Positions 1 through 54,800 of a DNA stretch of 64,000 bases are shown here, one piece after another; the first letter of the stretch is position 1, and each line of letters starts with the position of its first letter. The position numbers and the translations under genes are program-made. The notes beneath the pieces are model-generated. The model worked only from the letters and a program-made list of their open reading frames with translations, was not told the DNA's origin and did no database searches. This stretch comes from Candidatus Micrarchaeota archaeon (GTDB lineage Archaea > Micrarchaeota > Micrarchaeia > Anstonellales > Bilamarchaeaceae): NCBI GenBank assembly GCA_038046765.1, contig JBBSVN010000012.1:36044-100043 (forward strand), written 5' to 3'.

Positions 1-706
1 CAAAATCTACTTTTCCGTCTAATTTGAAATGATTTGTAATCCCTCTGCCATTTTCCCCTAGAACTCCGTCCCCATGCGCGTCATCAATGTATGTTACTGC
101 TTCGTATTGTTCTGATAGTTTTACGATTTGGTCTAAGGGTGCGATGTCACCATCCATCGAAAATACGCCATCGCTTACAATAAGAATTCTTTTTGCGTTT
201 TTAGTTTTCGCTTCTTTCAATTTTGCTTCTAAATCTTGCATGTTCTTGTGTTCGTAAACTAATCGATCTGCTTTACTTAATCGTAGTCCATCTATTATCG
301 ATCCGTGATTTAGCGAATCTGAAATTACTGCATCGCCTTCTCTTAACAATGCGGGTAACGCTCCGCTATTAGCTGTAAAACCTGTATTATAATATAGTGC
401 TGCTTCTGTATGTTTAAATTTCGCGATTAATTCTTCTAGTTTTAAGTGTATGTCCATTGTTCCAGCAATTGGCCTTACTGAACCGCTTCCAGCCCCATGC
501 GTTCTTATTGCGTTTATTGCTGCTTTTCTAAGTGCTTTATGATTTGCTAATCCTAAGTAATTGTTTGAGCATAACATGACTACTTTCTTTCCGTCAATTG
601 TGGATTGTGCCACTGATGGCCCGCCTAGTGTTCGTGGTTTCCACAATAAGTTATCTTTATCTAATAAATCGAGTTCGGATTTTAGTTCTTCTAATAATCG
701 AGACAT
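1..706 (-). CDS. kbl: 2-amino-3-ketobutyrate CoA ligase / glycine C-acetyltransferase (PLP-dependent alpha-oxoamine synthase family). C-terminus lies beyond the window start.
   Basis: The reverse-strand translation from the ATG at 706 gives MSRLLEELKSELDLLDKDNLLWKPRTLGGP...HGAGSGSVRPIAGTMDIHLKLEE...LIVSDGVFSMDGDIAPL, typical of the AONS/KBL family. The gene sits back-to-back with tdh. Confidence 0.7.
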   Translation of the reverse strand, partial: MSRLLEELKSELDLLDKDNLLWKPRTLGGPSVAQSTIDGKKVVMLCSNNYLGLANHKALRKAAINAIRTHGAGSGSVRPIAGTMDIHLKLEELIAKFKHTEAALYYNTGFTANSGALPALLREGDAVISDSLNHGSIIDGLRLSKADRLVYEHKNMQDLEAKLKEAKTKNAKRILIVSDGVFSMDGDIAPLDQIVKLSEQYEAVTYIDDAHGDGVLGENGRGITNHFKLDGKVDF

Positions 707-863
707 TTAGAATCACCGTTAACATATAATCTATTCATTTTGATGTTTTAAATATCCTATTAAATTATTAAATCTGTTCGTGTAGAAAAATTCACATAAA
801 TATAAACTTATTGTTAATTTGACACTTTAGTATACTTTTAAATCTTGGTAGATTAATTTAATT

Positions 864-3035
864 ATGGTAAATATTCCTTCATCACCAGATTTGCCTGATT
901 TTATTCCAAAACTAAAGATACGCGACTTAAAGGGCGAACTACGAAGCGAAGCAGAAGATATTCTCGAACAATTTTCAGAAGTTTCTACTGCAACTTTATC
1001 TAAAAATAGCACGATTGAATCAATGGTTAAACTATCAGCTAAACTTAACAAGAAGAGTAAAGGACATAAGAAACTAAAAAACAAGGTTGAAAACTTTGTC
1101 ATGATGGCTAATGCGCTTAAAAGAGAAAACGTAGTTGTTGCTGTTGCAACTACAAGAAACGAAGAACGAAGATTTAGACCACCGACACAAGAAATTGAAG
1201 CAAGACGAATGTTATTAGGAAGATTTGAAATTCACGAAATACTTAAAGATAATGGGCAGATGGGGACAACTTATAAAGTTTGGGACAATGAAAAAAATCA
1301 GTTTGCAGTAGTTAAAGAAGTTTTAGAAAGAAATAGGGATGCAACTATAATTGCAAAAAGAGAATACAAACTTGGTAAAAGATTAAATCATTCTGGAATT
1401 TCGAGTTATTCTGAATTTATTGAAGATAAATCCGAGGGTATGATTTACGTTGTAAGAGAATGGGTTGAAGGAACTAATCTTAAGGATATTGGAACACAAA
1501 GCGAGCAGAAAATAAAACAATTCTTGGAGCAAATAATTGAAATCGTCAAATATGTACATTCCGAGGACATAATTTTGCGTGATTTAAAAATAAGTAATTT
1601 TGTTCTAACTAGTGATGGCAGACTTAAACTAATTGAAGTATGTGGTGCACTTGAAGAAGGTGAAGCTAAAATTCAGGAACGAAATCACGAATCAACAATG
1701 TTTCATGTAGGAAGTCCATTTTCAACTGCTCCTGAACTATTTAGTCCTTGTAAACAGTCTGATATTTGGTCAATCGGTTCGATTATTGCTGATTTGTACT
1801 TAGGTGATGGAAAGAAATGCCAAATCTCTTCAGATGAATATGATTTTAGTATAATTGAAAATAAAAAACTTAGAACAATCGTAGAAAAAGCCATGCAGTA
1901 CAGGGTAAAATATCGATATCAATCTGTTGAAGAACTCGCTCAAGCGATTAGCGTAAAAGACGAATCGGTTGCTTTAAATAATGTGGAAAGACCTGGTGTT
2001 TTTGCTAGGATTAGGGCAAGTGTTATTTCATTTTTCAGTTACTCTGAAGCTACTATAATTAAAAATTTAAAAGAATCAATCGAAACTAATTCGCTTCGTG
2101 CCAATGATCAAAGACTTCAAAATCTTACTCCTGAAGAAGCAGATAAACTTTTACAATCCTTAGATGCTAAAAAAATTAGCAAAGGGGCGGATGTAAATGT
2201 TGTACTTTACATAATTTGTGAAAAAATTACTCAACTTCGTTCATTAGAAGTTGTTGCGGCTATAAAAAAATTACTTGAAATTGAAAGTTTTGGTGCTAAA
2301 ATCATTAGTAATTCTGTTTTTGATTTTTTAATTGAGAACCTAAATTCCAAATCTGCTTCCCAGGGAATACTCGAATTTTCAAAGTTTGATTATTTTGCTG
2401 ATCAGATACATGCCTTAATGAAAAAAATCGATAAAGAAATAGATGCATGTAATGCGTTAATCACAATTAAAAAAATGAAGAATAGAAACGAACTTGATCA
2501 AAAAGGCATTTTTAGACTCGCAGGAACGATTATTTCATCCGCAAATGCAGCTGATGTCATGGAAGCCGAAGGAGCTGATTTTGATGAAGCAACGATGGAT
2601 ACTTTGGCAAGAACAATTGCTAATGCGGGTAATCAAAATGATGCAAAGCGAGCGCTATGGAAAAGAACAATTACTAAATATTATCCATGGATAGATGTTC
2701 TGGCAAAAACTATTGGGGCTGATTCGGCTAGTGCTTCACAAGTTCTAAGTACTATCGAAATAAACATTGGTGTTGGGTATTTTGAACCAAAATTAAGGAC
2801 TTCTCTAAGTAATCTCGCAGAAAAAGTAAGCGAATCAGCACATGCGAAAAATGTTATAATGAAATTCGGCGATGCTGAAAGAAGTCTTAGATGGATAAAT
2901 ACATGGTTAACTCCCGGATCTATTGGTACCTTAGTTGCTCAAGTAAATGTTCCACAGCACATACAGGAAATTTTGGCATATAGCCAAGCTCCCGAATCGA
3001 TAAAAACCGAATTACGAAAAAAACTTAGAGAATAA
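864..3035 (+). CDS. Eukaryotic-like Ser/Thr protein kinase-fold protein, probably a pseudokinase, with a roughly 430 aa helical C-terminal domain of unknown function.
   Basis: Hanks-type motifs are present: a VAIK-like FAVVKEV, an alphaC Glu, a catalytic loop LRDLKISNF (HRD changed to LRD), APE (TAPELF) and subdomain IX SDIWSIGS. The DFG Asp is absent (IEVCGA). Only a 28 bp gap separates it from tdh. Confidence 0.55.
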   Translation: MVNIPSSPDLPDFIPKLKIRDLKGELRSEAEDILEQFSEVSTATLSKNSTIESMVKLSAKLNKKSKGHKKLKNKVENFVMMANALKRENVVVAVATTRNEERRFRPPTQEIEARRMLLGRFEIHEILKDNGQMGTTYKVWDNEKNQFAVVKEVLERNRDATIIAKREYKLGKRLNHSGISSYSEFIEDKSEGMIYVVREWVEGTNLKDIGTQSEQKIKQFLEQIIEIVKYVHSEDIILRDLKISNFVLTSDGRLKLIEVCGALEEGEAKIQERNHESTMFHVGSPFSTAPELFSPCKQSDIWSIGSIIADLYLGDGKKCQISSDEYDFSIIENKKLRTIVEKAMQYRVKYRYQSVEELAQAISVKDESVALNNVERPGVFARIRASVISFFSYSEATIIKNLKESIETNSLRANDQRLQNLTPEEADKLLQSLDAKKISKGADVNVVLYIICEKITQLRSLEVVAAIKKLLEIESFGAKIISNSVFDFLIENLNSKSASQGILEFSKFDYFADQIHALMKKIDKEIDACNALITIKKMKNRNELDQKGIFRLAGTIISSANAADVMEAEGADFDEATMDTLARTIANAGNQNDAKRALWKRTITKYYPWIDVLAKTIGADSASASQVLSTIEINIGVGYFEPKLRTSLSNLAEKVSESAHAKNVIMKFGDAERSLRWINTWLTPGSIGTLVAQVNVPQHIQEILAYSQAPESIKTELRKKLRE

Positions 3036-3062
3036 ACAAATCAACAAACGAGGCGTTTAATT

Positions 3063-4097
3063 ATGTTGTCAGTTTGGAAAACAAAACCAGAAGAAGGACT
3101 TATAGTAAAAGAAACAGATGTCCCTAAAATCAAAGAAGACCAAGTTCTAATCAAAGTCAAAGCAACTTCAATATGCGGCACAGATATGCATATTTACAAA
3201 TGGGATGAATGGGCGCAAAAACGAATCGGGAAAAATATTCCATATATTTTTGGTCATGAAGTAGCTGGGGAAATTGCAGAAATGGGTAAAAGCGTAAAAG
3301 GCTTATCTATAGGAGATCACGTATCAGCTGAAACGCATATCTCATGCGGATATTGTTTCCAGTGTAAAACTGGAAATGAACATATTTGTCAGAATGTTAA
3401 AATTTTAGGAGTTGATACAAACGGAACTTTTGCAGAATATTTAGCACTACCCTATCGAAATGCATGGGTAAATGACAAGAAAATTCCTCATTCTGTTGCA
3501 ACAGCACAAGAACCATTAGGAAACGCAGTCCATACTGTTTTTGATGGCGAAATTGTTGGAAAAACAGTTACGATATTTGGTATGGGCCCAATCGGAATTT
3601 GTGCAGTTGGACTATGCAAACTAGGTGGAGCAGAAAAGATAATTGCAATTGATAACCATGGTAGCAGATTAAAAATGGCAAAAGATTTTGGCGCAGATGT
3701 ACTAATTAATCCAAAGGAAAGCAATACACAAAAAGAAATAATGGATGCAACAAATGGACTAGGCGCAGATGTATTTTTAGAAATCGCAGGAAGCGAAGCA
3801 GCAATGACTGATGGATTAGCAACAATTAAGGCAGGTGGGAGAGCTTCAATTCTGGGAGTTTTCTCGAAACCATTTACTGTTGATGTCACTAGAGACATTG
3901 TGTTTAAAGGCATCAAACTCACAGGGATTAACGGAAGAAAAATGTTTGATACTTGGTATAAAACAAGATCTATTTTAGCTAGCGGAAAACTAGACCTAGC
4001 AAAACTCGTTACGCACAAGTTTAAACTAAAAGATATTGAAAAAGGATTCCAGGTTATGAAAAAAAGAGAAGGAATGAAGATTGTTTTGGAGCCTTAA
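3063..4097 (+). CDS. tdh: L-threonine 3-dehydrogenase (Zn-dependent medium-chain dehydrogenase).
   Basis: Typical Tdh N-terminus: CGTDMHIYKWDEW, GHEVAGEIAEMG and GDHVSAETHISCGYCFQCKTGNEHIC (structural zinc Cys4), plus a Rossmann GMGPIG. kbl lies next to it. Confidence 0.85.
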   Translation: MLSVWKTKPEEGLIVKETDVPKIKEDQVLIKVKATSICGTDMHIYKWDEWAQKRIGKNIPYIFGHEVAGEIAEMGKSVKGLSIGDHVSAETHISCGYCFQCKTGNEHICQNVKILGVDTNGTFAEYLALPYRNAWVNDKKIPHSVATAQEPLGNAVHTVFDGEIVGKTVTIFGMGPIGICAVGLCKLGGAEKIIAIDNHGSRLKMAKDFGADVLINPKESNTQKEIMDATNGLGADVFLEIAGSEAAMTDGLATIKAGGRASILGVFSKPFTVDVTRDIVFKGIKLTGINGRKMFDTWYKTRSILASGKLDLAKLVTHKFKLKDIEKGFQVMKKREGMKIVLEP

Positions 4098-4119
4098 TCG
4101 TCATTTATCACACAAAATT

Positions 4120-4200
4120 CTAAAAAATGTGTGGTAAGTTTTTCTCTCGTAATTTTTAGGCACACATTTAATAGTTAAAATGTGTGGTAAGTAAATATAT
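4120..4200. repeat. 16 bp direct repeat (aaaatgtgtggtaagt, twice) with an embedded inverted repeat (aaatgtgtgg / gcacacattt) in the convergent tdh/rad50 intergenic region. Possibly a bidirectional terminator or binding site.
   Basis: Read directly from positions 4125-4140 and 4180-4195. The complementary block lies near 4163-4172. Confidence 0.3.
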
Positions 4201-4218
4201 AAAATAAAAAGAAACTAC

Positions 4219-6519
4219 CTAAACCCTTTGCGCAATCGTCGGTCCCAAATTAGATTTGTCCCTGGTTAGTACATAATTCGTTGCAAAATCACTTCCAGTT
4301 AATCCTTCTTCATGGCTAATTATTAACGTCTGTTCGATAACGCTTGGAACTTTAAATTGCAAAGTATTTGAAAGAAGTTCAATCGCTTCGCTATCTAAAT
4401 TGTGTGTTGGTTCATCTAAAATTAACCAACTTAAATTTGGTGTTAAAACTGTCGCTAATGCAACGCGCAAAGTTAATGCAACACAAGCTCTTTCTCCTCC
4501 GCTAGCAACTGTTTCTAATTCCTTCCAGCCATTTTCAAGTATTTCTACATTGTAATCTTTTTCAGTTACATTTATCCTAATTGCCTTGTAGTTTCTATGC
4601 GGGTAAAATATATTCCAAATCTCGTTCATCGCATTATTTATTGCTTCAATTAAATTTGTTCTAAGTGAAATCTGCGTTTCTAATAATGCGTCCTTGTAGA
4701 TACTCAATTCATTTTCAAGCTTTGATAAGTACTTAATTTCTAAGTCTATTTCCTTAAGGTGAATTAGTTCTTTATCCGTAATCTCATATATCTGTTGATA
4801 ATCACCAACTTGTTTTTTTAATACTGCTAATGATCCAAAAATCTTTTCATAGTTAATCTTTACATTTTCAAGTAAAACTCTTTTTTCCTCAAATACCTTA
4901 TCGTCAAATTTAACCAGAGCAAGTTTCGTATTTATTTCTTCTAAATTTTTAGTTGTATTTTCTATTTCCTTTTTCTTCTTAATTTCTGACTCCATTTTAT
5001 TTTGTTCTAAAATAAGTTTTTCAATCTGGCTAGTTAGCTCGCTTAGATTTTTTTGCATCTGTAATTTATTGTCTTCAATTATTTTTTGGTTTTCTGTCTT
5101 TGTAGTTGTTTCTTTTATGACTAAAGCCTCATCTATGAGTCCTTCTTTAAGCGCTTTTATCCGATCTGTTAAAAGTTCAGCTGATTTTAAATCTTTTTCA
5201 ATTGTTTCAATGCTACTTCTAATTTGGCTAATCTTTAGTTCGATTTTCGGTAAAATTTCGTTATTCTCCCTAACAATTTTTTCTCTTTCATTTTTTATGT
5301 GTGATATTTTATCTGGATTTAATTCGCAGTTACATACTGGGCATACTGCGGCACTATCCTGTAATTGTATTTTATTTGCTATGTCCTGTAACTCCTTGAT
5401 TTTAGCTTTTCTTACTCCAAGTTCGGCTGTTAGTTCTGATGACTCTTTTGAAAGGGGATCTTTTTTCAACTTTAGATCTGGGATACTGGCATTTTTTAAT
5501 ATAAGTTTTAACGAACTATCATATTTTGCTATCAGTTCGACTGAATTTTTGTTATTCTTTATTTTCTGTTCATTTGCAGCGATTTGTTTACTTATTTCTA
5601 ATGATGCCTGATCTAGTGGTTTAATTTTTTCCATTACTTCTAGTCTATTTTTCTGTGTCTCTGTTCTTCTTGTTTTTAGTTCTTCCAAAACTACCTCTTG
5701 AACTTCTACATATCCTTTTTTCAAATTTTCAATTATAGCAGTTAATTTTATCTGCTGGTTTTTCAAGATTTCAAAACTATCTTTTAGTAACTTTAATTGG
5801 TCATACTCATCTTGAAAGTCTTTTCTTTTTACGCTCAATTCCCCAATCTCTTTTTCTAGTTCAGTTGCCCTCTGTTTTCCCTTATCCATTTCTAAGATTA
5901 TTGTTTGTTTCTTTTCTTCTAATTCCTTTATTCTTAAGCTACTAAATTTTTCTGATAATGTTTTGTTGCCAGATTTTATTCTGTTTATTACAGAAATAAG
6001 GTTTGTTCTAGCTGTTTCAAACTTATCTAAACCCAGTAGGTTATCAAGTTCCTGCTTTCTTCTTCTTGGTTCAACAGATAAAAAATAATCTATGTTGTTC
6101 TGGTCGCTGTAAATTGCTCTTGTAAATAAATCGTAGTCCACTTGTAATAATTGTTCAATATATTCATTTACTGCTACTGGACCCTTATCCATTAACTGAT
6201 CTTTCTTGTATACATAAGCATCAGTACTGGTTCCTCTTTTATCTTTCTTTATAATTCGTTCTACCTTGTAATTTTCTCCCCTGCAGTTAAAATTAAGTTC
6301 GATTTGTGCAGAATTTTCATTTAGTCGCAGTGTGTTTTCTAAGTTTAATTTTCTTTTTTCTAAACTAGGAAAAGTTCCAAATAATGCAAAACAGATCGCA
6401 TCAAGTACGCTTGATTTTCCACTCCCCATACTTCCAATTAAAAGATTAGTTCCTTTGCTAAACGCTAAGTTGCTGTTTGCATGCGATCGCCAGTTTGTAA
6501 GTTTGATGGAAGTAAGCAT
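4219..6519 (-). CDS. rad50: Rad50-type SMC-like DNA repair ATPase.
   Basis: N-terminal Walker A GSMGSGKSS, a long coiled coil with a central CPVCNCEL zinc hook (CxxC), and a C-terminal signature plus Walker B (ILDEPTHNLD). Confidence 0.85.
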   Translation of the reverse strand: MLTSIKLTNWRSHANSNLAFSKGTNLLIGSMGSGKSSVLDAICFALFGTFPSLEKRKLNLENTLRLNENSAQIELNFNCRGENYKVERIIKKDKRGTSTDAYVYKKDQLMDKGPVAVNEYIEQLLQVDYDLFTRAIYSDQNNIDYFLSVEPRRRKQELDNLLGLDKFETARTNLISVINRIKSGNKTLSEKFSSLRIKELEEKKQTIILEMDKGKQRATELEKEIGELSVKRKDFQDEYDQLKLLKDSFEILKNQQIKLTAIIENLKKGYVEVQEVVLEELKTRRTETQKNRLEVMEKIKPLDQASLEISKQIAANEQKIKNNKNSVELIAKYDSSLKLILKNASIPDLKLKKDPLSKESSELTAELGVRKAKIKELQDIANKIQLQDSAAVCPVCNCELNPDKISHIKNEREKIVRENNEILPKIELKISQIRSSIETIEKDLKSAELLTDRIKALKEGLIDEALVIKETTTKTENQKIIEDNKLQMQKNLSELTSQIEKLILEQNKMESEIKKKKEIENTTKNLEEINTKLALVKFDDKVFEEKRVLLENVKINYEKIFGSLAVLKKQVGDYQQIYEITDKELIHLKEIDLEIKYLSKLENELSIYKDALLETQISLRTNLIEAINNAMNEIWNIFYPHRNYKAIRINVTEKDYNVEILENGWKELETVASGGERACVALTLRVALATVLTPNLSWLILDEPTHNLDSEAIELLSNTLQFKVPSVIEQTLIISHEEGLTGSDFATNYVLTRDKSNLGPTIAQRV

Positions 6520-6575: not shown

Positions 6576-7453
6576 CTATCTAAAAACAGTATATCTGCAA
6601 ACTTCAGGGTCGTTTACCTTTGCAATAATTTCAGCGTTTCCTTCGTTTACAAGGCGTTCGTAATACGTATTTGTTGAAGCAAGGTCTAAACCAACTATGA
6701 AACTATTTTTATCTTTTAGTAATCCGCGTAACTTTGTTAAAAATTGTTTTACGAGTACGGATCCGGTTTCGGGATTATGGAATTCTTTAATAAAGTGCAT
6801 TACATTTGCGAGGAATATTCGGTCGAACTTACGACTTTTTAATTTTTCTAATCCTTCGGGTAATGTTGTCTGGATTATGTTATATCTGTCTGCAAGTATC
6901 TTCGCCCGAGTTTTTGCATAAATTTCTTCATTTTTTAAGTGTGGAAAGAAATGCGTTCCTATATCTTGTTCTTCTAAGGTGATGTTACAACTATCACTTA
7001 CACGGTGATGTTCATTATTAACATCTAATCCCGCCTGATTGAAAATATCAATTAAGATATCTCGTTCATGACTTGATAAACAATCTTTAAGAAACAGGAT
7101 TGAATTGCTACGCAAGTAGTCATATGCTTGATTAAGATTTACTATAAACCTACTTGCTAACAATAATTTTAATAATTCGAGAAATTCCGCTCTGCTAAAT
7201 TCAGTTGTAGCCATTCTTGTTAATCTGTTATAAATAATCTGCTCTTTACTTGCATCTATCGCAACAACTTCCCTTACCTTTGGAAGCATAGCTAGTCCCA
7301 ACCATAAGCTGCGATCGTTAGGACACTATGGTGTGGTTGTAAATCCATAATCTCGAGCGTTTTAGGAACTCGTGTTAGTGGGCAGCCCCAGCTGAGTCTG
7401 CCTTTGGCAATGTTTAATGGTTTAACTGGTTTAATTATCGGTTCTGCTACCAT
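6576..7453 (-). pseudogene. Class I SAM-dependent methyltransferase-like gene split by an apparent +1 frameshift near 7292-7301. Motif I is degenerate.
   Basis: The 81-aa frame ends ...VLTIAAYGWD and the 241-aa frame continues LAMLPKVREVVAIDAS...FDRIFLANVMHF. Joined together they reproduce MTase motif I-II spacing (VLDxGxGxG...VVGxDxS). The two frames overlap by 10 nt. Confidence 0.35.
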
Positions 7454-7527: not shown

Positions 7528-8169
7528 ATGCAAGCACAACATTTACTAATTCCAGGTCAAAGAAGAATCAATAAAATGGAATATCCTGGTTTTAAGAATG
7601 ACTTAAAAAAAGCTGGGTTTCGTGTTGAAGTTGGGTTAAATGAATTTAGTTATGGTCTAAAAACAAATCATTTTTTTCATGATCCTGGTTTTAATTTAGC
7701 TGTTAATGCCCTACATACTCCTGATAAAAAAGAAACAATTGTAAGCGCCGAATTGACAATGGTGTGGAGACCAGCTCTCCAACTTAATAGTGTCATAATT
7801 GAAGGTTTTCAGGAAAAAGCACATACTGTAGATTTACCTAATGGATATCAATACGCTGCTTTTCTAGTCGTTCCAAAAACAGTTGAATTATTAGTTGAAA
7901 ATGCCTTAAAATTAGGTAAATTTATTGCTGGACTAGAGGAACATCCATTAATTGAAGGTATTGAAGACAATCCGAAGGAAATTGTCTATAATAATCGTTG
8001 GTATAGTCAACGGATCCAAAACGCTTCAATTCCAGCTGAGGCTAAATCAATTGAGTTAGAGTGGGCTAGGGTACGAGATTTTATATGCGCTAGTATAGCT
8101 CATAAAGTCGGAGTTCTGCGACTCGACCAAAATTTAATTGAAGTTATGGCGTTTGTCACAAATAAATAA
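7528..8169 (+). CDS. Hypothetical protein.
   Basis: Long ORF with codon usage like its neighbours. No motif recognised. Confidence 0.45.
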   Translation: MQAQHLLIPGQRRINKMEYPGFKNDLKKAGFRVEVGLNEFSYGLKTNHFFHDPGFNLAVNALHTPDKKETIVSAELTMVWRPALQLNSVIIEGFQEKAHTVDLPNGYQYAAFLVVPKTVELLVENALKLGKFIAGLEEHPLIEGIEDNPKEIVYNNRWYSQRIQNASIPAEAKSIELEWARVRDFICASIAHKVGVLRLDQNLIEVMAFVTNK

Positions 8170-8183
8170 TTTTTGGTATTTTT

Positions 8184-9011
8184 ATGTCACAAACAAAATC
8201 ACAAACATTTGCTCCTCACGTAAAACGAGAAGACGTTTATTCAAGACTTGGAGGGCCTACTTTAAGGTTGCTACAAAGACTTAAGGCGATTCCTGAGGAG
8301 AACGGTGCGGTTTCAAGATTCAAAGAAACTAAACTTGATCAATTGAATCTAGATGCAATATCTCGTATTTGGTCAAGTGATCCAAATGAATTAGCAACAA
8401 TTCATGAAAGAGTTTATAGCGAATTGGCTGATTCTAGAAGGTGCAAATCTTCCAGAATGGATGAAGAAATTAAACGCGGAGTTTTAGAACTAACCGCGTT
8501 TCCATTTATCGTAGCTGATGTCGTCCTAGATCTAGCTTTAATGGACGAAGAAGAAATAAAACGAAAATTTCCTTGTCCAAAATTCTTCACTCAAGATGAA
8601 AGAAATGTTTTTGCAGTTGCAATGCACTCTGCTATAGAAGCGACTGCTAAAGAAGACCTTAAAAATTTCTTGAAAACTCATGTAAGCAGTTTTTACCCTC
8701 ACAACTTCCCAGAAGTAGGGGTATTAAAGACCAGGATTGCTTTTCTTGAAAGTGTTGCTAATGATTTTACTGATCAAAAAACGCGCTACTTAATGCAAGA
8801 CCGATATGATATGTGTAATCGTTTTCATATTAAGACCAAATCTACAGAAGATTTATATGCCGACCTTAGTATGTATCCGCGAGGTGGAAGGCTAGCTTTA
8901 ATAGAAGTTCTAAGTTGGAATGGGGGGCTTGACCGTGAATCTAGAATTAAGTTGGAAGCACTCGATCTTGAGTATCAGGTTCTTGGTCTAGGTCTTTCAA
9001 ACAGTGATTAA
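8184..9011 (+). CDS. Hypothetical protein.
   Basis: Long ORF, 14 bp downstream of the previous ORF. No motif recognised. Confidence 0.45.
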   Translation: MSQTKSQTFAPHVKREDVYSRLGGPTLRLLQRLKAIPEENGAVSRFKETKLDQLNLDAISRIWSSDPNELATIHERVYSELADSRRCKSSRMDEEIKRGVLELTAFPFIVADVVLDLALMDEEEIKRKFPCPKFFTQDERNVFAVAMHSAIEATAKEDLKNFLKTHVSSFYPHNFPEVGVLKTRIAFLESVANDFTDQKTRYLMQDRYDMCNRFHIKTKSTEDLYADLSMYPRGGRLALIEVLSWNGGLDRESRIKLEALDLEYQVLGLGLSNSD

Positions 9012-9127
9012 TTTAGTTACTAGACAAAATTCTTCTTACATATGTTAACTATATCATTTCGTCTTTCGTCGTATCTTCCAGCGTCAATCAACAATCTTTT
9101 TAAACCAATCTTAGCACATAAATACTG

Positions 9128-10231
9128 TTGATTTCTATGCGCTTAGTCGTAAAACTCGGCAGTTCCTTAGTTACTGCAAAAAACGGAATAGATTCTCATT
9201 TAATAAAGAAAATCGCTGATGAAATCTGTTCTTTAAGCGAACACGATTTTGTCATTGTTACTTCTGGAGCAATATCTACTGGGATGCGTAAACTTGGGAT
9301 AAAAGAAAAACCAAGAGACATTGCATTACATCAAGCACTGGCCGCAGTAGGCCAAGGTTCACTCATGCGAGCTTACGAGAGAATATTCGCAGATCGAAAA
9401 ATTTTAGCCCAAGTTCTTTTAACAAATAATGACTTCTGTAACCGTTTACAATACCTAAACATTCAACACACATTAAACATGCTAATTTCAAAACATGTAG
9501 TTCCAATAATAAACGAAAACGATACGGTAACTGCCCAAGATATAAAGAAAGTCGCCTTTGGAGATAACGATTCGCTAGCAGCTCAAGTCGCAGTTGCTAT
9601 AGATGCGGATATGCTAATTATCTTAACGGATGTTGATGGGTTATACGATCGAAATCCAAAAGATTCGCAAGCAAAATTAATTCGTGAAGTTAATGATTTT
9701 GACGATGCTTTTTTAGAATCTGCTTGTAGCACCTGTGGTGAACTAGGTCGAGGAGGAATGTCTGCAAAAGTTAAAGCTGCAAAAATGGCAACATTAGGAG
9801 ATGTAAAAGTTATTGTAGCTAAAGGAACAGAAATTAATGTGATTAAAAAAACAATTAACCATGAAGTTGGTACTGCATTCTATCCACCTAAAAATAATGA
9901 TCAATTATCTGCTCATAAAAACTGGATTGCGTTTGCTAGTGAAATAAAGGGGAAAATATTTGTAAAAGGAAGTACAGAAACAACTTGCAATTTAACTAGC
10001 GTAGTTTTGCCAAGCGAAGTAGTTTCTGCTGAAGGAGATTTTGAGAAAGGAGATGTAGTTGAAGTAATTTGTAATGAAAAGCGAATTGCAAGAGGAATGA
10101 GTAACTATTCCGTTTACGATCTAAACCGGGTTAAAGGATTGGAAGAAAATGATATTTTTAAAATCTTAGGCTATGCTTATAGGGAAGTAATTTCACAAAG
10201 TAATCTGGTGAAAACCAATGGAAAACATTAA
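9128..10231 (+). CDS. proB: Glutamate 5-kinase with a C-terminal PUA domain.
   Basis: MRLVVKLGSS N-terminus, amino-acid kinase fold, and a C-terminal PUA-like segment. It overlaps proA by 14 nt. Confidence 0.85.
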   Translation: MISMRLVVKLGSSLVTAKNGIDSHLIKKIADEICSLSEHDFVIVTSGAISTGMRKLGIKEKPRDIALHQALAAVGQGSLMRAYERIFADRKILAQVLLTNNDFCNRLQYLNIQHTLNMLISKHVVPIINENDTVTAQDIKKVAFGDNDSLAAQVAVAIDADMLIILTDVDGLYDRNPKDSQAKLIREVNDFDDAFLESACSTCGELGRGGMSAKVKAAKMATLGDVKVIVAKGTEINVIKKTINHEVGTAFYPPKNNDQLSAHKNWIAFASEIKGKIFVKGSTETTCNLTSVVLPSEVVSAEGDFEKGDVVEVICNEKRIARGMSNYSVYDLNRVKGLEENDIFKILGYAYREVISQSNLVKTNGKH

Positions 10232-11480
10232 CCAAGTCGATTCTTACGTAATTGATCTTCTTAAGCGAAGTAAATCTGCTAGTTCTTCCCTTGCATTACT
10301 TAGTACAAAAGAAAAAAATGAGTACTTAATGAAAATGGCCGATTCCTTAGAAAAAAATAGCGAACAAATTCTAAAAGCAAATAGAATTGATGTAGAAAAT
10401 GCAGTAAAAGAAAAAACTTCAGAAAGCTTAATTGATAGATTACGATTAACAAAAGAACGTATATATTCAATTGCAAAAGATGTCCGATTTGTTGCGAGTT
10501 TAGCTGATCCTATTGGCGAAGGCGAAGTATGGAAAGTACCAAATGGATTGGAAATTAAACGATTACGCGTTCCACTTGGAGTTGTTGCGATTATTTATGA
10601 ATCTAGGCCCAACGTAACAGTCGATGTTGCCTCGTTATGTTTAAAAACAGGTAATTCCTGCGTATTAAGAGGGAGTTCGAGTGCGCTTAATTCTAATCGA
10701 GCGATCGTTTCTGCGATTTCTAAAGTACTCCCATCTGATGCAGCACTTTTAATTGATAGCGAAGATCGAAAAGTAGTCGATACGTTAATGCATGCCAGAG
10801 GCTATGTTGACGTTTTAATTCCGAGGGGCGGAGCGAATTTAATTAAACATGTAACAGAAAACGCAACTGTTCCAGTTATTGAAACAGGGAGCGGTAATTG
10901 TCATATATTTATTGATGAATCAGCAGATTTAGAAAAAGCAGAAAAGATTGTTCTTAACGCTAAAACACAACGACCCGGAGTTTGCAATGCTGCTGAAAAA
11001 TTATTAATTCATAAAAATGTTGTTAAAGAATTTTTACCTAAAGTTGCAAAAGCGTTAAACGACAAAAAGGTCGAGCTAAGAGCGGATAAAGAATGTAAAA
11101 CGATTCTCGATTCGCAAAAAATCCCATGCAAGTTCGCAACAGAAGAAGATTGGCCAAAGGAATATTTAGATTTAATCATCGGCATAAAAGTTGTAAATAG
11201 TCTAGATGAAGCAATTGCTCATATTAACAAATATAACACAAAACATACCGAAGCAATTCTAACGAACAACGTAACAAATGCGAATAAGTTTGCAAAAGAA
11301 ATCGATGCTTCAACCGTAATGATTAATGCTTCAACAAGATTTACCGATGGCGGAGAATTTGGTTTTGGTGCTGAAGTAGGAATTAGCACACAAAAAATGC
11401 ATGCAAGGGGCCCAATGGGACTAAAGGAATTGACTACTTATAAATATGTTGTAACTGGAGAAGGACAAGTTAGGGGATAA
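10218..11480 (+). CDS. proA: Gamma-glutamyl phosphate reductase (glutamate-5-semialdehyde dehydrogenase).
   Basis: Aldehyde dehydrogenase family with the typical ProA length and motifs (VLIPRGG, ETGSGNCH). Translationally coupled to proB. Confidence 0.85.
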   Translation: MENINQVDSYVIDLLKRSKSASSSLALLSTKEKNEYLMKMADSLEKNSEQILKANRIDVENAVKEKTSESLIDRLRLTKERIYSIAKDVRFVASLADPIGEGEVWKVPNGLEIKRLRVPLGVVAIIYESRPNVTVDVASLCLKTGNSCVLRGSSSALNSNRAIVSAISKVLPSDAALLIDSEDRKVVDTLMHARGYVDVLIPRGGANLIKHVTENATVPVIETGSGNCHIFIDESADLEKAEKIVLNAKTQRPGVCNAAEKLLIHKNVVKEFLPKVAKALNDKKVELRADKECKTILDSQKIPCKFATEEDWPKEYLDLIIGIKVVNSLDEAIAHINKYNTKHTEAILTNNVTNANKFAKEIDASTVMINASTRFTDGGEFGFGAEVGISTQKMHARGPMGLKELTTYKYVVTGEGQVRG

Positions 11481-11482
11481 CA

Positions 11483-12349
11483 TTAATACAAATATCCCTT
11501 ATACTGTCCTACAAAAACTTCAAACAGATACCTGATAAATGGTCTATACTTTTTATCGTAATCAAACTTCTGCAGCATCAAATAGTAAATTGTTTTTTGA
11601 TCGTTAAAAATATTTAACAACGGATAGTTTGCTTTAAACAAAACAAAATTCATAAGTAGTCTTGCCATTCTTCCGTTTCCATCTCTAAATGGGTGAATCC
11701 GGACAAATTTTAAATGAACTAGAGAAGCTAGTTCAAAAGGATGAAGCTGACTCTTAGCTTGATTATGCCAGGAAATAAATTGCTGCATTAAAACAGGTAC
11801 ATCTGCAAAATTTGGACAAACGTAGTTTCCAACACGAACGTTTACATTTCTGTATTTTCCAGCATCATTCATTATTTCTTTTTGTTCGATGTAATGCAAT
11901 TTTAAAATCATTTCCTCTGTCATTTCTCCTTGATAATCAAAAAGAAAATCAATACATTCGCGCATATTTTCTACTTCTTTGATATCTCGTTCTTTCCCTT
12001 TAGTATTAATCTTCTTGCCAAGTAAAATTGTTTCTGTTTCCTCGATTGTAAGTGTATTGCCTTCAATTGCATTTGTGTTGTAGATAAAACTCACAATACG
12101 TTCTCGCTCTTCCTTCCAAAGATTTTTGCTTATCGAATGTTTTTTTGAGTAATTGCTAGCTACTATTTTCAATATTTCTGTTTCTTTTTTTGTAAGTTTC
12201 GATTGAGCGATCTTTTTGGTTGGCAGTTGATTTGGTGGATGTGTTCCAATATATTTTCTTATTTTTTTAAATTTCCCGTCAACTCTTTTAGTTTCTGTTA
12301 AATAGTAATATGGCTTTCCTTTGATAATTTTCTTTTCCAAATATGTCAT
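11483..12349 (-). CDS. fic: Fic/Doc (Fido) family protein, class II, with an intramolecular inhibitory helix.
   Basis: Canonical Fic motif HPFRDGNGRMARL. An upstream TNAIEGN matches the (S/T)xxxE(G/N) inhibitory motif. Confidence 0.8.
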   Translation of the reverse strand: MTYLEKKIIKGKPYYYLTETKRVDGKFKKIRKYIGTHPPNQLPTKKIAQSKLTKKETEILKIVASNYSKKHSISKNLWKEERERIVSFIYNTNAIEGNTLTIEETETILLGKKINTKGKERDIKEVENMRECIDFLFDYQGEMTEEMILKLHYIEQKEIMNDAGKYRNVNVRVGNYVCPNFADVPVLMQQFISWHNQAKSQLHPFELASLVHLKFVRIHPFRDGNGRMARLLMNFVLFKANYPLLNIFNDQKTIYYLMLQKFDYDKKYRPFIRYLFEVFVGQYKGYLY

Positions 12350-12847: not shown

Positions 12848-13026
12848 CTATTACATAACTTGGTTGAATCTGTTTTTAAACCCTTATTTTTCATAAAAAG
12901 AAACATAAAATATTCTTTGACACGAAATAAAAGCTTTCATTAGTAATGAATACTAGTTTGCAGCGGCAGTACACACTTTCGATAATGCTTAAAGTGCTAT
13001 CTATCAATCTAATATCGCTGATATTT

Positions 13027-13803
13027 ATGTCAACAATCGGGATTATCGGAGCTGGAAGATTGGGAAGCGCATTTGCAGAAGCTTTTGCTAAAAGCTATAA
13101 AATAATTGTTAGTGATCCAAATAAAGAAAATCTTGAGCGATTTAAGAAAATCAAAAACATACAAACAACTACTGATAATATCGAACTCGCTACTAAAAGT
13201 GATTTTGTACTAATTGCAGTCAAACCAAAAGATTTTGATTTAGTTGTTGCACCAATAGCAAAAGCACTAGAAAATAAACTACTTATTTCATTCGCTGCTG
13301 CAGTAAACATAAATCGAATCGAGTCCTTAGGAATAAAAAATGTTATTCGAGTTATGCCAAATATTTGCGTTTCTGTAGATGAAGGATTACTTGCTTATTC
13401 GCTTGGTAAACATGCGAGTACCTACGAAAAACAATTCTTAGACTCTTTTTCTAAAATAGGAAAATGTCTAAAGATGGACGAAAAACTAATCGATCCAATA
13501 ACTGTGTGTTCGGGTTCTGGCCCAGCTTTTATTGCATATTTTGCTGATGCAATCGCAGAAGAAGCGAAATCGAACGGATTAGATTACGAATTAGCGATGC
13601 AAGCAGTTGCCCAGACTTTAGTTGGAACCGGGAAACTTCTTCTATCTGGCAAGCGTGCGCAAGAAATAATTACACAAGTGGCTTCGCCAGGAGGAGTAAC
13701 TGAAGAAGGATTAAAAATTCTTGATAAAAATCAGGTAAAAGAAAAAATTAAGGAATCAATTCGCTTTGCGATGAAAAAGACGATTGAGATGGGAAAGAAA
13801 TAA
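13027..13803 (+). CDS. proC: Pyrroline-5-carboxylate reductase. The ORF is open from 12946; the likely start is MSTIGIIGAGRLG.
   Basis: Rossmann IGIIGAGRLG and a C-terminal SPGGVTEEGL dimerisation/P5CR motif. Confidence 0.8.
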   Translation: MSTIGIIGAGRLGSAFAEAFAKSYKIIVSDPNKENLERFKKIKNIQTTTDNIELATKSDFVLIAVKPKDFDLVVAPIAKALENKLLISFAAAVNINRIESLGIKNVIRVMPNICVSVDEGLLAYSLGKHASTYEKQFLDSFSKIGKCLKMDEKLIDPITVCSGSGPAFIAYFADAIAEEAKSNGLDYELAMQAVAQTLVGTGKLLLSGKRAQEIITQVASPGGVTEEGLKILDKNQVKEKIKESIRFAMKKTIEMGKK

Positions 13804-51862: not shown

Positions 51863-54800
51863 TTAAACAAAATCCGCAAGTCCAAGTTGTCTGCTTTTTT
51901 CATCTTCGAAAATACTTCGTATTTCCTTTTTAACTAGAAGTAGTCTTTGCTTTAAATAATCCGGTAATTCGTAATCTGCAATAATCTTTTCTGAAATTTC
52001 TAAGTATTTTTCAATTCCTCCCTTATTTATTGTTAAAATAAGATTTCCTCCACAGAAATTGCATTTGCCCGATAACGGGACGCGTCTTAAACTTTCATTA
52101 CAACTAGTGCATCTAAATGTTTGCCTTGAAAATGATCTTAAATTACCATATAAATCTGGTATAAAATGGCTAAGGATTAATCTTTCAGCAGCATTCTTCG
52201 CATCTACTGCCCTTATTTTTCCCTGTAATTTAAATTGCGTGGTTATCTTATCAGCCATATTATCAAATGTTACATAAGCCGTTCGTAAATTTCCTTTATC
52301 TATATATCCGCCCGTATGCGTAAGCTGAATTTCAAATTGCTCGGGGGTTCCAAGTAAGTCCTTTACTGTTTTTAATTTTACTTCTGTTGGAGGTGTATAC
52401 TTTAGTGTTGCCTCATAAAATTCTTTTGGATAAGAATTCACTACTTCAATACAGTGCGCTTCATCATCAACTTCTTTTGGGTCTAACTGAGGTGTTAAAA
52501 CTAATGGCGCGTCCATTGTCCCCCCTCTTCGCTCAGTTAAATAATGCCTTGAAAAATTAATCAGGGTGTCCATAAGAAGCATGACTGAGTCTTCATCACC
52601 ATCACATTGATAAGTAGTTATTCCAGAACAAATAAGACTGTGGTACTTTTCTACCGTTACATTGTAAACAAATTTATCTTGGTTTTTGATCGTTTTTCTC
52701 TCAATAACCTGATCAATAAAAGTGTCTCCTAAATATTCTGTCCTAGATCCTTTTCTTTTTGTTTCCCACTTCTCCAAAAGTTTTTGCGCTTTTTCTTGCT
52801 TTAAACCAGAAAATCCTATGTTATCAATAAATTTTTTAGCTTCACTAGAATAAATTCTTATCTTATATGAATGAATATATTTGGGTCTGCCATAAAACTT
52901 TATAATCAGAGAACTTTTTACGTATCTATCTTCTTCATAAATCGAATGCTTAATTCCAAAGAAATTTAGCAAAATGGAAACTCCATCTATCAGTTCCTTA
53001 TTTATAGAAGTTACATTCACCTCCAGGGTATTGCCTAAAGAACAAGAACCATCTCCCGTGAAGTAACCTTTTAGCAGTGCAATCACTTTTTTATTTGGCA
53101 AAGAATAGACAAAATCAGGTATTTTTTTAGTTTTTGCATTTCTACCTATTTTTAACTTTTCAAAGAGTTCGTAAATATATCTTGAACAAATTGTTATATG
53201 TGTTTTATTTACATGAGGTTTAATTCCAAAAACTTTCTCAATTTTTTCTTTTATTATATCTACTGCCCATTCTTTGGTAGCTGTCAAAGAAACCTGATAA
53301 CAATCTATCTGCTTATTTTTAGTAAACCCCTCCGCTAAATAAAATCCGATTAAATAGAAGAAATCCTCATCAAGCTTTATTGTTGGCTTTAACAGAACCT
53401 TATCCCTCTTACTACCTAATATATATTTTTTACTCGCCAGTATGTCTGCTCTAAATTCTTTTACCAATTCCAACGGATAAGATTTTCTATATATATAATT
53501 AGTGAAAGTTTTGTAATTTAATCCAAAACTTCTACTTATTTGAGATAATTCTCCCTCTTCATTGAATAATTTCTCATCTGTTCTTATCATTGCATCTGTA
53601 ATATTCAAACTAGAAATAAGTTCCATGTCTTCCCTATCTATAATTTCCCTTTGCAAATTCCAAGGAATTATTAGTTCTTCAACTTCATTCGCGCTTACTT
53701 TTTCTCCTTTTGAATTCGGAAATTTATGGTCTGGCGTTACCGTTATTCTTCTGCCAGATTTTGTTTTTAACTTTACTAAATTTTCTGGTGCAATATGTTT
53801 TGAAACATGCGTAATATTACATAATTCAAATTTTTTCATTTTCTTGTTCCAAGCATATGTCTTTACTCCTTCTACTAGTTTATATTGAGTCCCAAAATCA
53901 TCTATTTCTGTTTTTCCGACTAAATTACTTTCTACAAAATCCATTATTTTCGTAAGTTCTAGTGATCCGTTTCGCTCGACCAAAATTTTTTCTTTTCCAT
54001 CAAAACAATTTCTCCTTCGCGCTGATATCAAATAAGGATGAGCATAAGATAAATTTGCCTTTGTAAAACCTACAATTCTGCAAAGAACTGCCGCGCTAGT
54101 GTGTGGCGAAAGACAAGCAGTTAGTTGTCCTATTAAGTCCTGTTTTGTTAATGCATTATAAAACGGCGCAAGCCCGTAAACGTTTACTAATAAATCATCG
54201 ATAAATTTTGCAGCCTGTAAGAAATATTCTCCATTCGCTTCTGGTATTACAATGTCCTGTATTTTAAGTGAAACAAGTTGGTTTTCGTTAGTTAATTCAT
54301 TTCCATAATAATCTTTCAAATAGCCTAAACTTCTTAGTTTTGCAATACTAACCTGTGCTTCACTTGGTTTAAAATGAGTTAAAGGGACGTTACTGGCATC
54401 AAAGCGCATTGTTCCATCACGAAATACATAAACCCCATATTTCGCCCTTAAAAATCCTTTTTCTAAAAGTTCGGGCGTACGCTCTAAATTAGATAACCCC
54501 TTTATTCCCTTTACATCCTCAACGCTTATGTCTAGTTTTTTCTTTATTGAATCATAAAGTTCGATCATATCTATGGGTTTTTTTTCAAAGCATACTGTTT
54601 CCTTATCACAGTGTATTTTCATGTTAACTGGGTTGCCGCATACAACGCATTTTTTTTCAATAATTGTTTCGCCCTTACAAATTTCGCATGTAGATAAAAA
54701 TGTAAGTTTTTTACAACTCGTACATCTTCTGTTTACAAGTTCAAGGTTAACTGTTCGTTCATCCCTACCACGAAGAGTTTTGTATATTTTTGTTATGCTT

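Follow-up and report, generated by a model that had tools for sequence, protein, structure and literature searches.

A gene for a predicted pseudokinase inserted between kbl and tdh in one Micrarchaeota lineage

The threonine-catabolism genes kbl and tdh of a Micrarchaeota (DPANN) archaeon from Hainich groundwater are separated by a kinase-like gene, which we analysed within a 64,000-nucleotide stretch of contig JBBSVN010000012.1 (positions 36,044 to 100,043; hereafter the window, the numbering of which is used throughout). We propose that this gene is a lineage-specific insertion that encodes a predicted pseudokinase, that its transcripts read through into tdh, and that it shares no function in threonine metabolism with the genes on either side. 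As a complete explanation, we give this proposal an even chance of being correct, and its parts are graded separately below.

The kinase-like gene (864-3035, + strand) encodes a Hanks-type kinase-fold protein of 723 amino acids and ~81.6 kDa. No hydrophobic segment of transmembrane strength was detected in this protein, which is therefore predicted to be soluble. Downstream, tdh (3063-4097, + strand) encodes an L-threonine 3-dehydrogenase of 344 amino acids (TIGR00692, E = 3e-128; NF003808, 424 bits versus a cut-off of 380), and the gap between the stop codon of the kinase-like gene and the tdh start codon is 27 nt. Upstream and on the minus strand, kbl (glycine C-acetyltransferase/2-amino-3-ketobutyrate CoA ligase; TIGR01825, E = 1e-94; NF005394, E = 2e-89) is cut by the start of the window, such that only its N-terminal 235 amino acids are represented in the translation (1-706); a complete kbl of 395 amino acids is present in loci L081 and L082. 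An earlier reading of the DNA made from the letters alone (the sequence-only reading) had described a 723-residue kinase-fold protein 28 bp upstream of tdh and lying between kbl and tdh. Both the gene and its position are as described, with the gap one nucleotide shorter. However, kbl and tdh are not a co-directional operon, because kbl is transcribed divergently from the kinase-like gene and the two threonine genes form a divergent pair, here separated by 2.3 kb.

The locus is found in identical form in three samples (contigs of one ENA and two Logan data sets), all taken from the H52 groundwater well at Hainich. On the ENA contig of this population (L081, 10200-11234), which carries 2 mismatches relative to the window over 7.3 kb, tdh was called as two ORFs. 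This split probably stems from an error of assembly or sequencing, and tdh is unlikely to be a true pseudogene there.

The open reading frame (ORF) of the kinase-like gene is a real gene. At the local composition (34% GC), a run of 723 codons uninterrupted by a stop is expected by chance with P ~1e-27, and in each of the three segments of the protein (N-terminal, kinase, and C-terminal), frame-0 codon usage is on a par with that of the other 55 ORFs in the window. These figures, together with a canonical promoter geometry, make it barely credible that the ORF is a passenger without function, or that it is decaying or chimeric, even though it is a singleton, two thirds of its length has no homologues, and its last ~13 codons lie over what used to be regulatory DNA. 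Furthermore, both the GC content of the gene and its GC content at third codon positions (GC3) are typical of the genome, so it is not a compositionally foreign recent arrival. No paralogue was found within the window, no direct or inverted repeats suggestive of a mobile element flank the gene, and positions 600-4400 contain no Rfam element.

A protein kinase domain was assigned to residues ~116-360 (1209-1943, + strand) on the basis of several comparisons. The Pfam Pkinase model PF00069 covers residues 130-351 (E = 4.2e-27; 95.6 bits versus a gathering cut-off of 31.7), and AlphaFold2 (AF2), supplied with a 21-sequence alignment, modelled residues ~120-260 and 290-360 with a predicted local distance difference test (pLDDT) score of ~90. 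When this kinase model was submitted to Foldseek, the top matches were chains of PknB from M. tuberculosis (E = 9e-13; TM(target) 0.75), and sequence matches to kinases in the PDB reached E = 7e-14. The kinase fold anticipated by the sequence-only reading is thus borne out. A homology search with the full-length protein returned only weak matches to the kinase domain, with identities of 31% or less, of which the nearest are kinases fused to helical TPR repeats.

The catalytic motifs were read from an alignment of the protein to its 20 best database matches. The glycine loop (D129-N-G131-Q-M-G134) carries two of the three glycines, and the VAIK region is normal (AVVK). Retained residues include K151 of strand β3, E167 of helix αC, D240, K242, N245, A289-P-E291, D300-I-W-S-I-G305, and R351. 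The catalytic loop (L238-R239-D240-L-K242-I-S-N245; 1575-1598, + strand) corresponds to HRDLKxxN with Leu in place of His. At the position of the DFG motif, the protein carries E258-V259-C260-G261 (1635-1646, + strand), wherein Asp is changed to Glu, Phe is changed to Val, and one residue is inserted. The DFG Asp is present in all 20 of the nearest homologues. These assignments agree with the earlier listing of Lys, Glu, the D-K-N residues, APE, subdomain IX, and an LRD motif, with the qualification that the DFG Asp is not simply missing but is replaced by Glu258, so a carboxylate is retained at this position.

Proteins are classed as pseudokinases by sequence when they lack the β3 Lys, the HRD Asp, or the DFG Asp (PMC12599244). 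One of these three defining residues is replaced here, and the metal-binding Asp expected of a competent kinase is Glu258. We therefore classify the protein as a predicted pseudokinase by the standard residue criterion, as the sequence-only reading had suggested when it offered the choice between a pseudokinase and an atypical kinase. The change of HRD to LRD, which had been cited in the same connection, is not diagnostic of inactivity as judged from the alignment. It constitutes weak evidence because FRD occurs in 2 of the 20 nearest homologues (P0003 and P0012), which otherwise have the canonical Lys, Asp, Asn, and DFG Asp, and the Asp-to-Glu change matters more. Among human kinases, only titin kinase carries EFG (PMC4042850), and when Asp was changed to Glu at this position alone (D147E) in the related, active twitchin kinase, phosphotransfer was no longer measurable (PMC4042850).

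The same alignment can be read in favor of a conventional, active Ser/Thr kinase that uses Glu258 as its metal ligand and operates independently of tdh, which would keep an operator-controlled promoter of its own within the 3′ end of the kinase-like gene. We consider this alternative unlikely but serious. The residues K151, E167, D240, K242, N245, APE, D300, and R351 are intact, Glu is a conservative replacement for the DFG Asp, and the two homologues with FRD keep the other canonical residues. However, the twitchin result shows that a change from Asp to Glu alone can abolish activity, the Asp is invariant among the nearest homologues, and the Phe and the spacing of the DFG motif are altered as well (EVCG). 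The part of this alternative that concerns the tdh promoter is taken up below with the transcription signals.

The regions that flank the kinase domain are orphans. The N-terminal region (residues 1-115; 864-1208, + strand) is basic (pI 9.9), is predicted to be helical, and has no family match. The C-terminal region (residues 361-723; 1944-3032, + strand) consists of 363 amino acids, is predicted to be all helical, and has no detectable homologue. The non-kinase portion of the protein is therefore divided into 115 and 363 amino acids on the two sides of the kinase domain, rather than forming the single fused helical domain of ~430 amino acids that had been described previously. For the C-terminal region, no match was found in a word-seeded search of 5.8 billion proteins or in Pfam (with E values up to 10), the PDB, or PHROGs, and the only sequences recovered by an exhaustive phmmer search against 1.84 billion representatives were two short fragments of this gene that contain frameshifts. 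This region has no internal repeats, and its AF2 models are unreliable (pLDDT ~40, both within the full protein and alone). Scans of JGI metagenomes and IMG/VR likewise recovered no relatives of the kinase-like protein.

We also considered whether the protein might be a stand-alone antiviral kinase of the abortive-infection type, such as PD-T4-6 or Stk2, in which the orphan C-terminal region would serve as the sensor. Its patchy distribution in a single lineage and its variable genomic site would suit such a role, and the PADLOC models for PD-T4-6 and mad6 match it with up to 92 bits, as does PHROG 2361 (serine-threonine kinase) with 81 bits. However, the best of these matches (PD-T4-6, 91.9 bits over residues 116-434, with a model that has no cut-off) is about equal to the score of the generic Pfam kinase model, and these matches mostly reflect the kinase domain alone. 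In addition, the NCBIfam models for MAD6 (63.5 versus a cut-off of 460) and PglW (17.5 versus 990) fall far short, partner genes of such systems are absent, the neighbors are housekeeping genes, IMG/VR contains no relative, and a canonical DFG motif would be expected of an abortive-infection kinase. We judge a defence function to be quite improbable. The equivalog cut-offs of NCBIfam were also missed by the models for PknB_PASTA (52 versus 450) and LanL (49 versus 650), and the models for the atypical archaeal kinases of the Bud32/KEOPS type scored below their cut-offs (22.9 bits versus 199 and 19 versus 125). A viral origin was set aside because searches of IMG/VR and PHROGs revealed no viral relative.

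The evidence that the gene is an insertion comes from a comparison of tdh loci. When one genome per species was scanned for tdh, 80 loci were obtained. The tdh orthologues in Micrarchaeota are 68-79% identical, and the nearest orthologues of both tdh and kbl are all from Micrarchaeota. The two genes are divergent and immediate neighbors in 24 Micrarchaeota loci, which upholds the expectation that they are normally adjacent, and the spacer between them is 104-310 bp long in 21 of these. More distant genomes carry the pair in tandem, with tdh followed by kbl. A homologue of the kinase-like protein was found in none of the 24 divergent Micrarchaeota loci and in none of the other tdh loci. The sole match to a kinase domain near tdh is a weak one located ~4.5 kb upstream of tdh in a cyanobacterial locus (L033).

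Each of the three larger Micrarchaeota spacers holds a different and unrelated gene between kbl and tdh. These encode a 289-amino-acid orphan (L019, 9017-9886) that is placed between kbl and the palindrome described below, as is the kinase-like gene in the window; a secreted GH114 glycosidase (L023, 8014-9153); and a DUF2878 membrane protein (L013, 9513-9872). The orphan of L019 was rejected as a relative of the kinase-like protein, since the two sequences are unrelated. On this comparative evidence, the kbl-tdh spacer has gained genes repeatedly, and the kinase-like gene is one such gain that is specific to a single lineage.

These observations bear directly on the proposal that the protein is a dedicated kinase or pseudokinase regulator of threonine catabolism that is coexpressed with tdh and acts on Tdh or Kbl. 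In its favor, the gene lies 27 nt from tdh with no intervening terminator, read-through is probable, and the gene is located inside the kbl/tdh regulatory region. However, the search of orthologous kbl-tdh loci that had been suggested for this insertion found it in none of the 24 relatives, and other genes occupy the same site in three of them. With the gene absent from relatives and unrelated inserts present there, its position can no longer be used to argue by association that it acts in threonine catabolism; the co-occurrence across related genomes that would mark a conserved kbl/tdh-associated regulator was not seen. The pattern of inserts points to a permissive site rather than to functional coupling, and the ancestral operator still accompanies tdh. 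Comparative support for the regulator proposed by the sequence-only reading is thus lacking, and we consider such a role improbable.

The location of the insertion point was deduced from the arrangement of signals in the relatives. From kbl to tdh, their spacers contain the kbl start codon, its Shine-Dalgarno (SD) sequence, the kbl TATA element, a quasi-palindrome, and the tdh TATA element ~20 nt farther on, after which tdh begins either leaderless or behind a short leader that carries an SD. The quasi-palindrome has the form wwCG-N8-CGwA (typically TTCG-N8-CGAA) and is present, among loci L001-L026 and L037, in the spacers of 21 of the 24 relatives, versus ~1 expected from shuffled sequences. 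We constructed a position weight matrix (PWM) from the sites of the relatives and scanned both strands of the window. The second-best score in the window belongs to ATCGATAAAAACCGAA (2996-3011, + strand), a copy of the palindrome located in the last 40 nt of the kinase-like ORF and 52 nt upstream of the tdh ATG, a distance that matches the relatives with short spacers. This site and its flanks align with the operator of L018, and only 0.7% of shuffled sequences match or exceed this alignment. In contrast, no palindrome is present in the spacer between kbl and the kinase-like gene, where the best PWM score is -2.1. Because the palindrome is kept at 2996-3011 and is absent from the kbl/kinase spacer, the insertion must have fallen between the kbl promoter and the tdh operator.

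The best PWM score in the window is found elsewhere, at 9058-9073, ~24 nt upstream of the TATA element of proB (9137-10231), which is followed by proA (10218-11480). With copies at both the kbl/tdh and the proBA promoters, the palindrome is a candidate for the operator of an amino-acid regulon.

Other explanations for the sequences at the insertion site were tried and rejected. The resemblance of its TATA element to the tdh TATA elements of the relatives raised the idea that the kinase-like gene had captured the ancestral tdh promoter, but the operator lies at 2996-3011 and TATA boxes are alike throughout the genome. A half-site TTCGTGTAG at 776 and whole-spacer alignments to the relatives performed no better than shuffled sequences. 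Likewise, TTTAATTATG, which precedes both start codons, was dismissed as a target-site duplication because contexts of the TTAATTA type are common before ATG codons in the window.

The promoter of kbl has the same layout as in the relatives (CAT, then TCACC, then TATA ~40 nt from the start codon), with an SD of GGTGA (complement of 713-717) and a TATA-like element ATATTTAAAA (complement of 746-755; together 713-755, - strand). The kinase-like gene is preceded by the TATA-like element TTTTAAAT (836-843, + strand), which begins 28 nt before the ATG, and has no SD. This arrangement fits a leaderless class comprising 18 of the 56 genes in the window, in which a TATA-like hexamer starts at -26 to -33 and no SD is present. 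Other window genes have an SD (GGTG, GAGG, or AGGT) at -9 to -16, and some of these have a TATA element farther upstream, whereas operon-internal ones do not. The tdh gene carries an SD of GAGG (3050-3053, + strand) that is 9 nt before the ATG and starts at -13, which is of the same type as the SDs of operon-internal genes. A scan for sigma-70 promoters was set aside as inapplicable to archaea, and it gave no enrichment.

Read-through from the promoter of the kinase-like gene into tdh is the likely arrangement, because the intergenic gap is only 27 nt, tdh has an SD, no run of five T residues (T5) occurs between the kinase-like stop codon and tdh, and no TATA-like hexamer is found within 90 nt upstream of tdh. 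After the tdh stop codon, two T5 runs (4139-4143 and 4153-4157; 4139-4157, + strand) probably serve as an archaeal terminator at which the kinase-tdh transcript ends. Cotranscription, as put forward in the sequence-only reading, is therefore plausible, although a residual, separate tdh promoter may exist. The tdh promoter of the active-kinase alternative would be composed of the operator 52 nt upstream of tdh and the degenerate, A-rich segment AGAGAATAAA (3027-3036, + strand), which occupies the position of the tdh TATA element in L004, L007, and L018 and includes the TAA stop codon of the kinase-like gene (3033-3035). However, this TATA remnant is unlike the TATA-like hexamers of the other window genes and matches none of them.

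The convergent spacer between tdh and the downstream Rad50-like gene (4098-4218) has features of its own. A 16-nt sequence, AAAATGTGTGGTAAGT, is repeated exactly and in direct orientation at 4124 and 4177, and the spacer folds as a nested hairpin (-24.4 kcal/mol; z = -4.4 versus shuffled sequences) that has no Rfam match and is more elaborate than a T-run terminator.

Taken together, the favored explanation, that of an inserted predicted pseudokinase gene without a threonine function, is as follows. A gene of ~2.2 kb was inserted into the divergent kbl-tdh control region of one Micrarchaeota lineage. Its product is a soluble, signalling-type protein of three parts, with a basic helical N terminus, a Hanks-type kinase fold, and an orphan helical C-terminal region. 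The change of the DFG Asp to Glu suggests that the kinase fold is catalytically weak or dead, in which case it may act mainly as an ATP-binding or scaffolding module, with specificity provided by the orphan helical region. The gene has its own leaderless-type promoter, and its ORF crosses the old tdh operator and ends in the old tdh TATA element. The kbl gene is now separated from the palindrome by 2.3 kb, the palindrome remains with tdh only, and tdh has probably become mostly an SD-dependent second cistron reached by read-through of the 27-nt gap. The link to threonine catabolism would then be a consequence of the landing site and not evidence of shared function, and no role in the regulation of tdh is predicted.

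Several considerations weigh against this explanation. Glu258 keeps a carboxylate at the metal position and the other catalytic residues are intact, so real activity, perhaps dependent on Mn, is possible. The retained operator and the A-rich TATA remnant could form a weak, operator-dependent internal promoter for tdh, in which case read-through would not be needed for its expression. Note also that word-seeded searches, limited to the best candidates listed by them, are part of the basis for regarding the gene as absent elsewhere, and that the gene is carried by one population only.

Viewed as a kinase, the protein adds little, because prokaryotes have many Hanks-type kinases and predicted pseudokinases that carry unique accessory domains. 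The main use of the locus is as a documented gene gain in a reduced DPANN genome, wherein a compositionally native orphan gene has entered a shared control region. Possibly of more general use is the TTCG-N8-CGAA palindrome, a candidate operator that could be tested as the control element of an amino-acid regulon in this uncultured phylum. A bolder view is that the orphan region is the founding example of a sensor or scaffold domain not recognised before and that the protein is a DPANN-specific signalling device that was recruited into the amino-acid regulon rather than landing there by accident. If true, such a device might act in the relationship between symbiont and host, or it might couple amino-acid status to tdh via the embedded operator. 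We regard this view as a long shot.

Several other features of the window were noted. The gene convergent with tdh encodes a Rad50-type SMC ATPase with a zinc hook (4219-6519, - strand). At 766 amino acids, this protein is short and falls below all curated Rad50 cut-offs, and no Mre11 gene is adjacent. Its neighbors (6576-7301, - strand, and 7528-9011, + strand) are a weakly methyltransferase-like ORF followed by ORFs of 213 and 275 amino acids without Pfam or PADLOC matches, and the Rad50-like gene is not located beside tdh in the related genomes examined. Matches to the LmuB and mad3 models suggested a defence partner, but this possibility was set aside because the best matches are archaeal Rad50 proteins and the zinc hook is present. 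A gene of the Fic/DOC family (E = 2e-22; 11483-12349, - strand) lies between proA and proC (12946-13803) and represents a signalling- or toxin-type gene in an amino-acid biosynthesis cluster. The large subunit of DNA polymerase D (DP2; 51863-56623, - strand; 1586 amino acids) contains an intein with a LAGLIDADG homing endonuclease at residues ~890-1335.

Among known systems, the kinase-like protein is a singleton member of the class of Hanks-type kinases and pseudokinases with orphan accessory regions, and it has no conserved genomic context. Many PknB-type kinases of bacteria and archaea carry helical repeats or sensor domains fused at the C-terminal side. The protein shares with these Ser/Thr kinases the bilobal fold, the β3 Lys, the αC Glu, the D-x-K-x-x-N motif, APE, and the residues of subdomains IX and XI, but it differs from them by its LRD and EVCG motifs, by the absence of a transmembrane segment and of PASTA or TPR domains, and by its unmatched regions of 115 and 363 amino acids. 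Titin kinase, a vertebrate pseudokinase with EFG, likewise has Glu in place of the metal-binding Asp and keeps the catalytic-loop Asp. However, titin kinase has Met in its VAIK motif and comes from an unrelated lineage and context, whereas the protein described here has AVVK and an altered DFG Phe and spacing. PD-T4-6, Stk2, and MAD6 of the MADS system are likewise patchily distributed and consist of a kinase domain and a C-terminal part that varies, but the similarity of the present protein to them is no better than to a generic kinase model, and no partners accompany it. Finally, the kbl-tdh pair of other Micrarchaeota is divergent around a common palindromic spacer, whereas here both genes are present and intact but are split by 2.3 kb.

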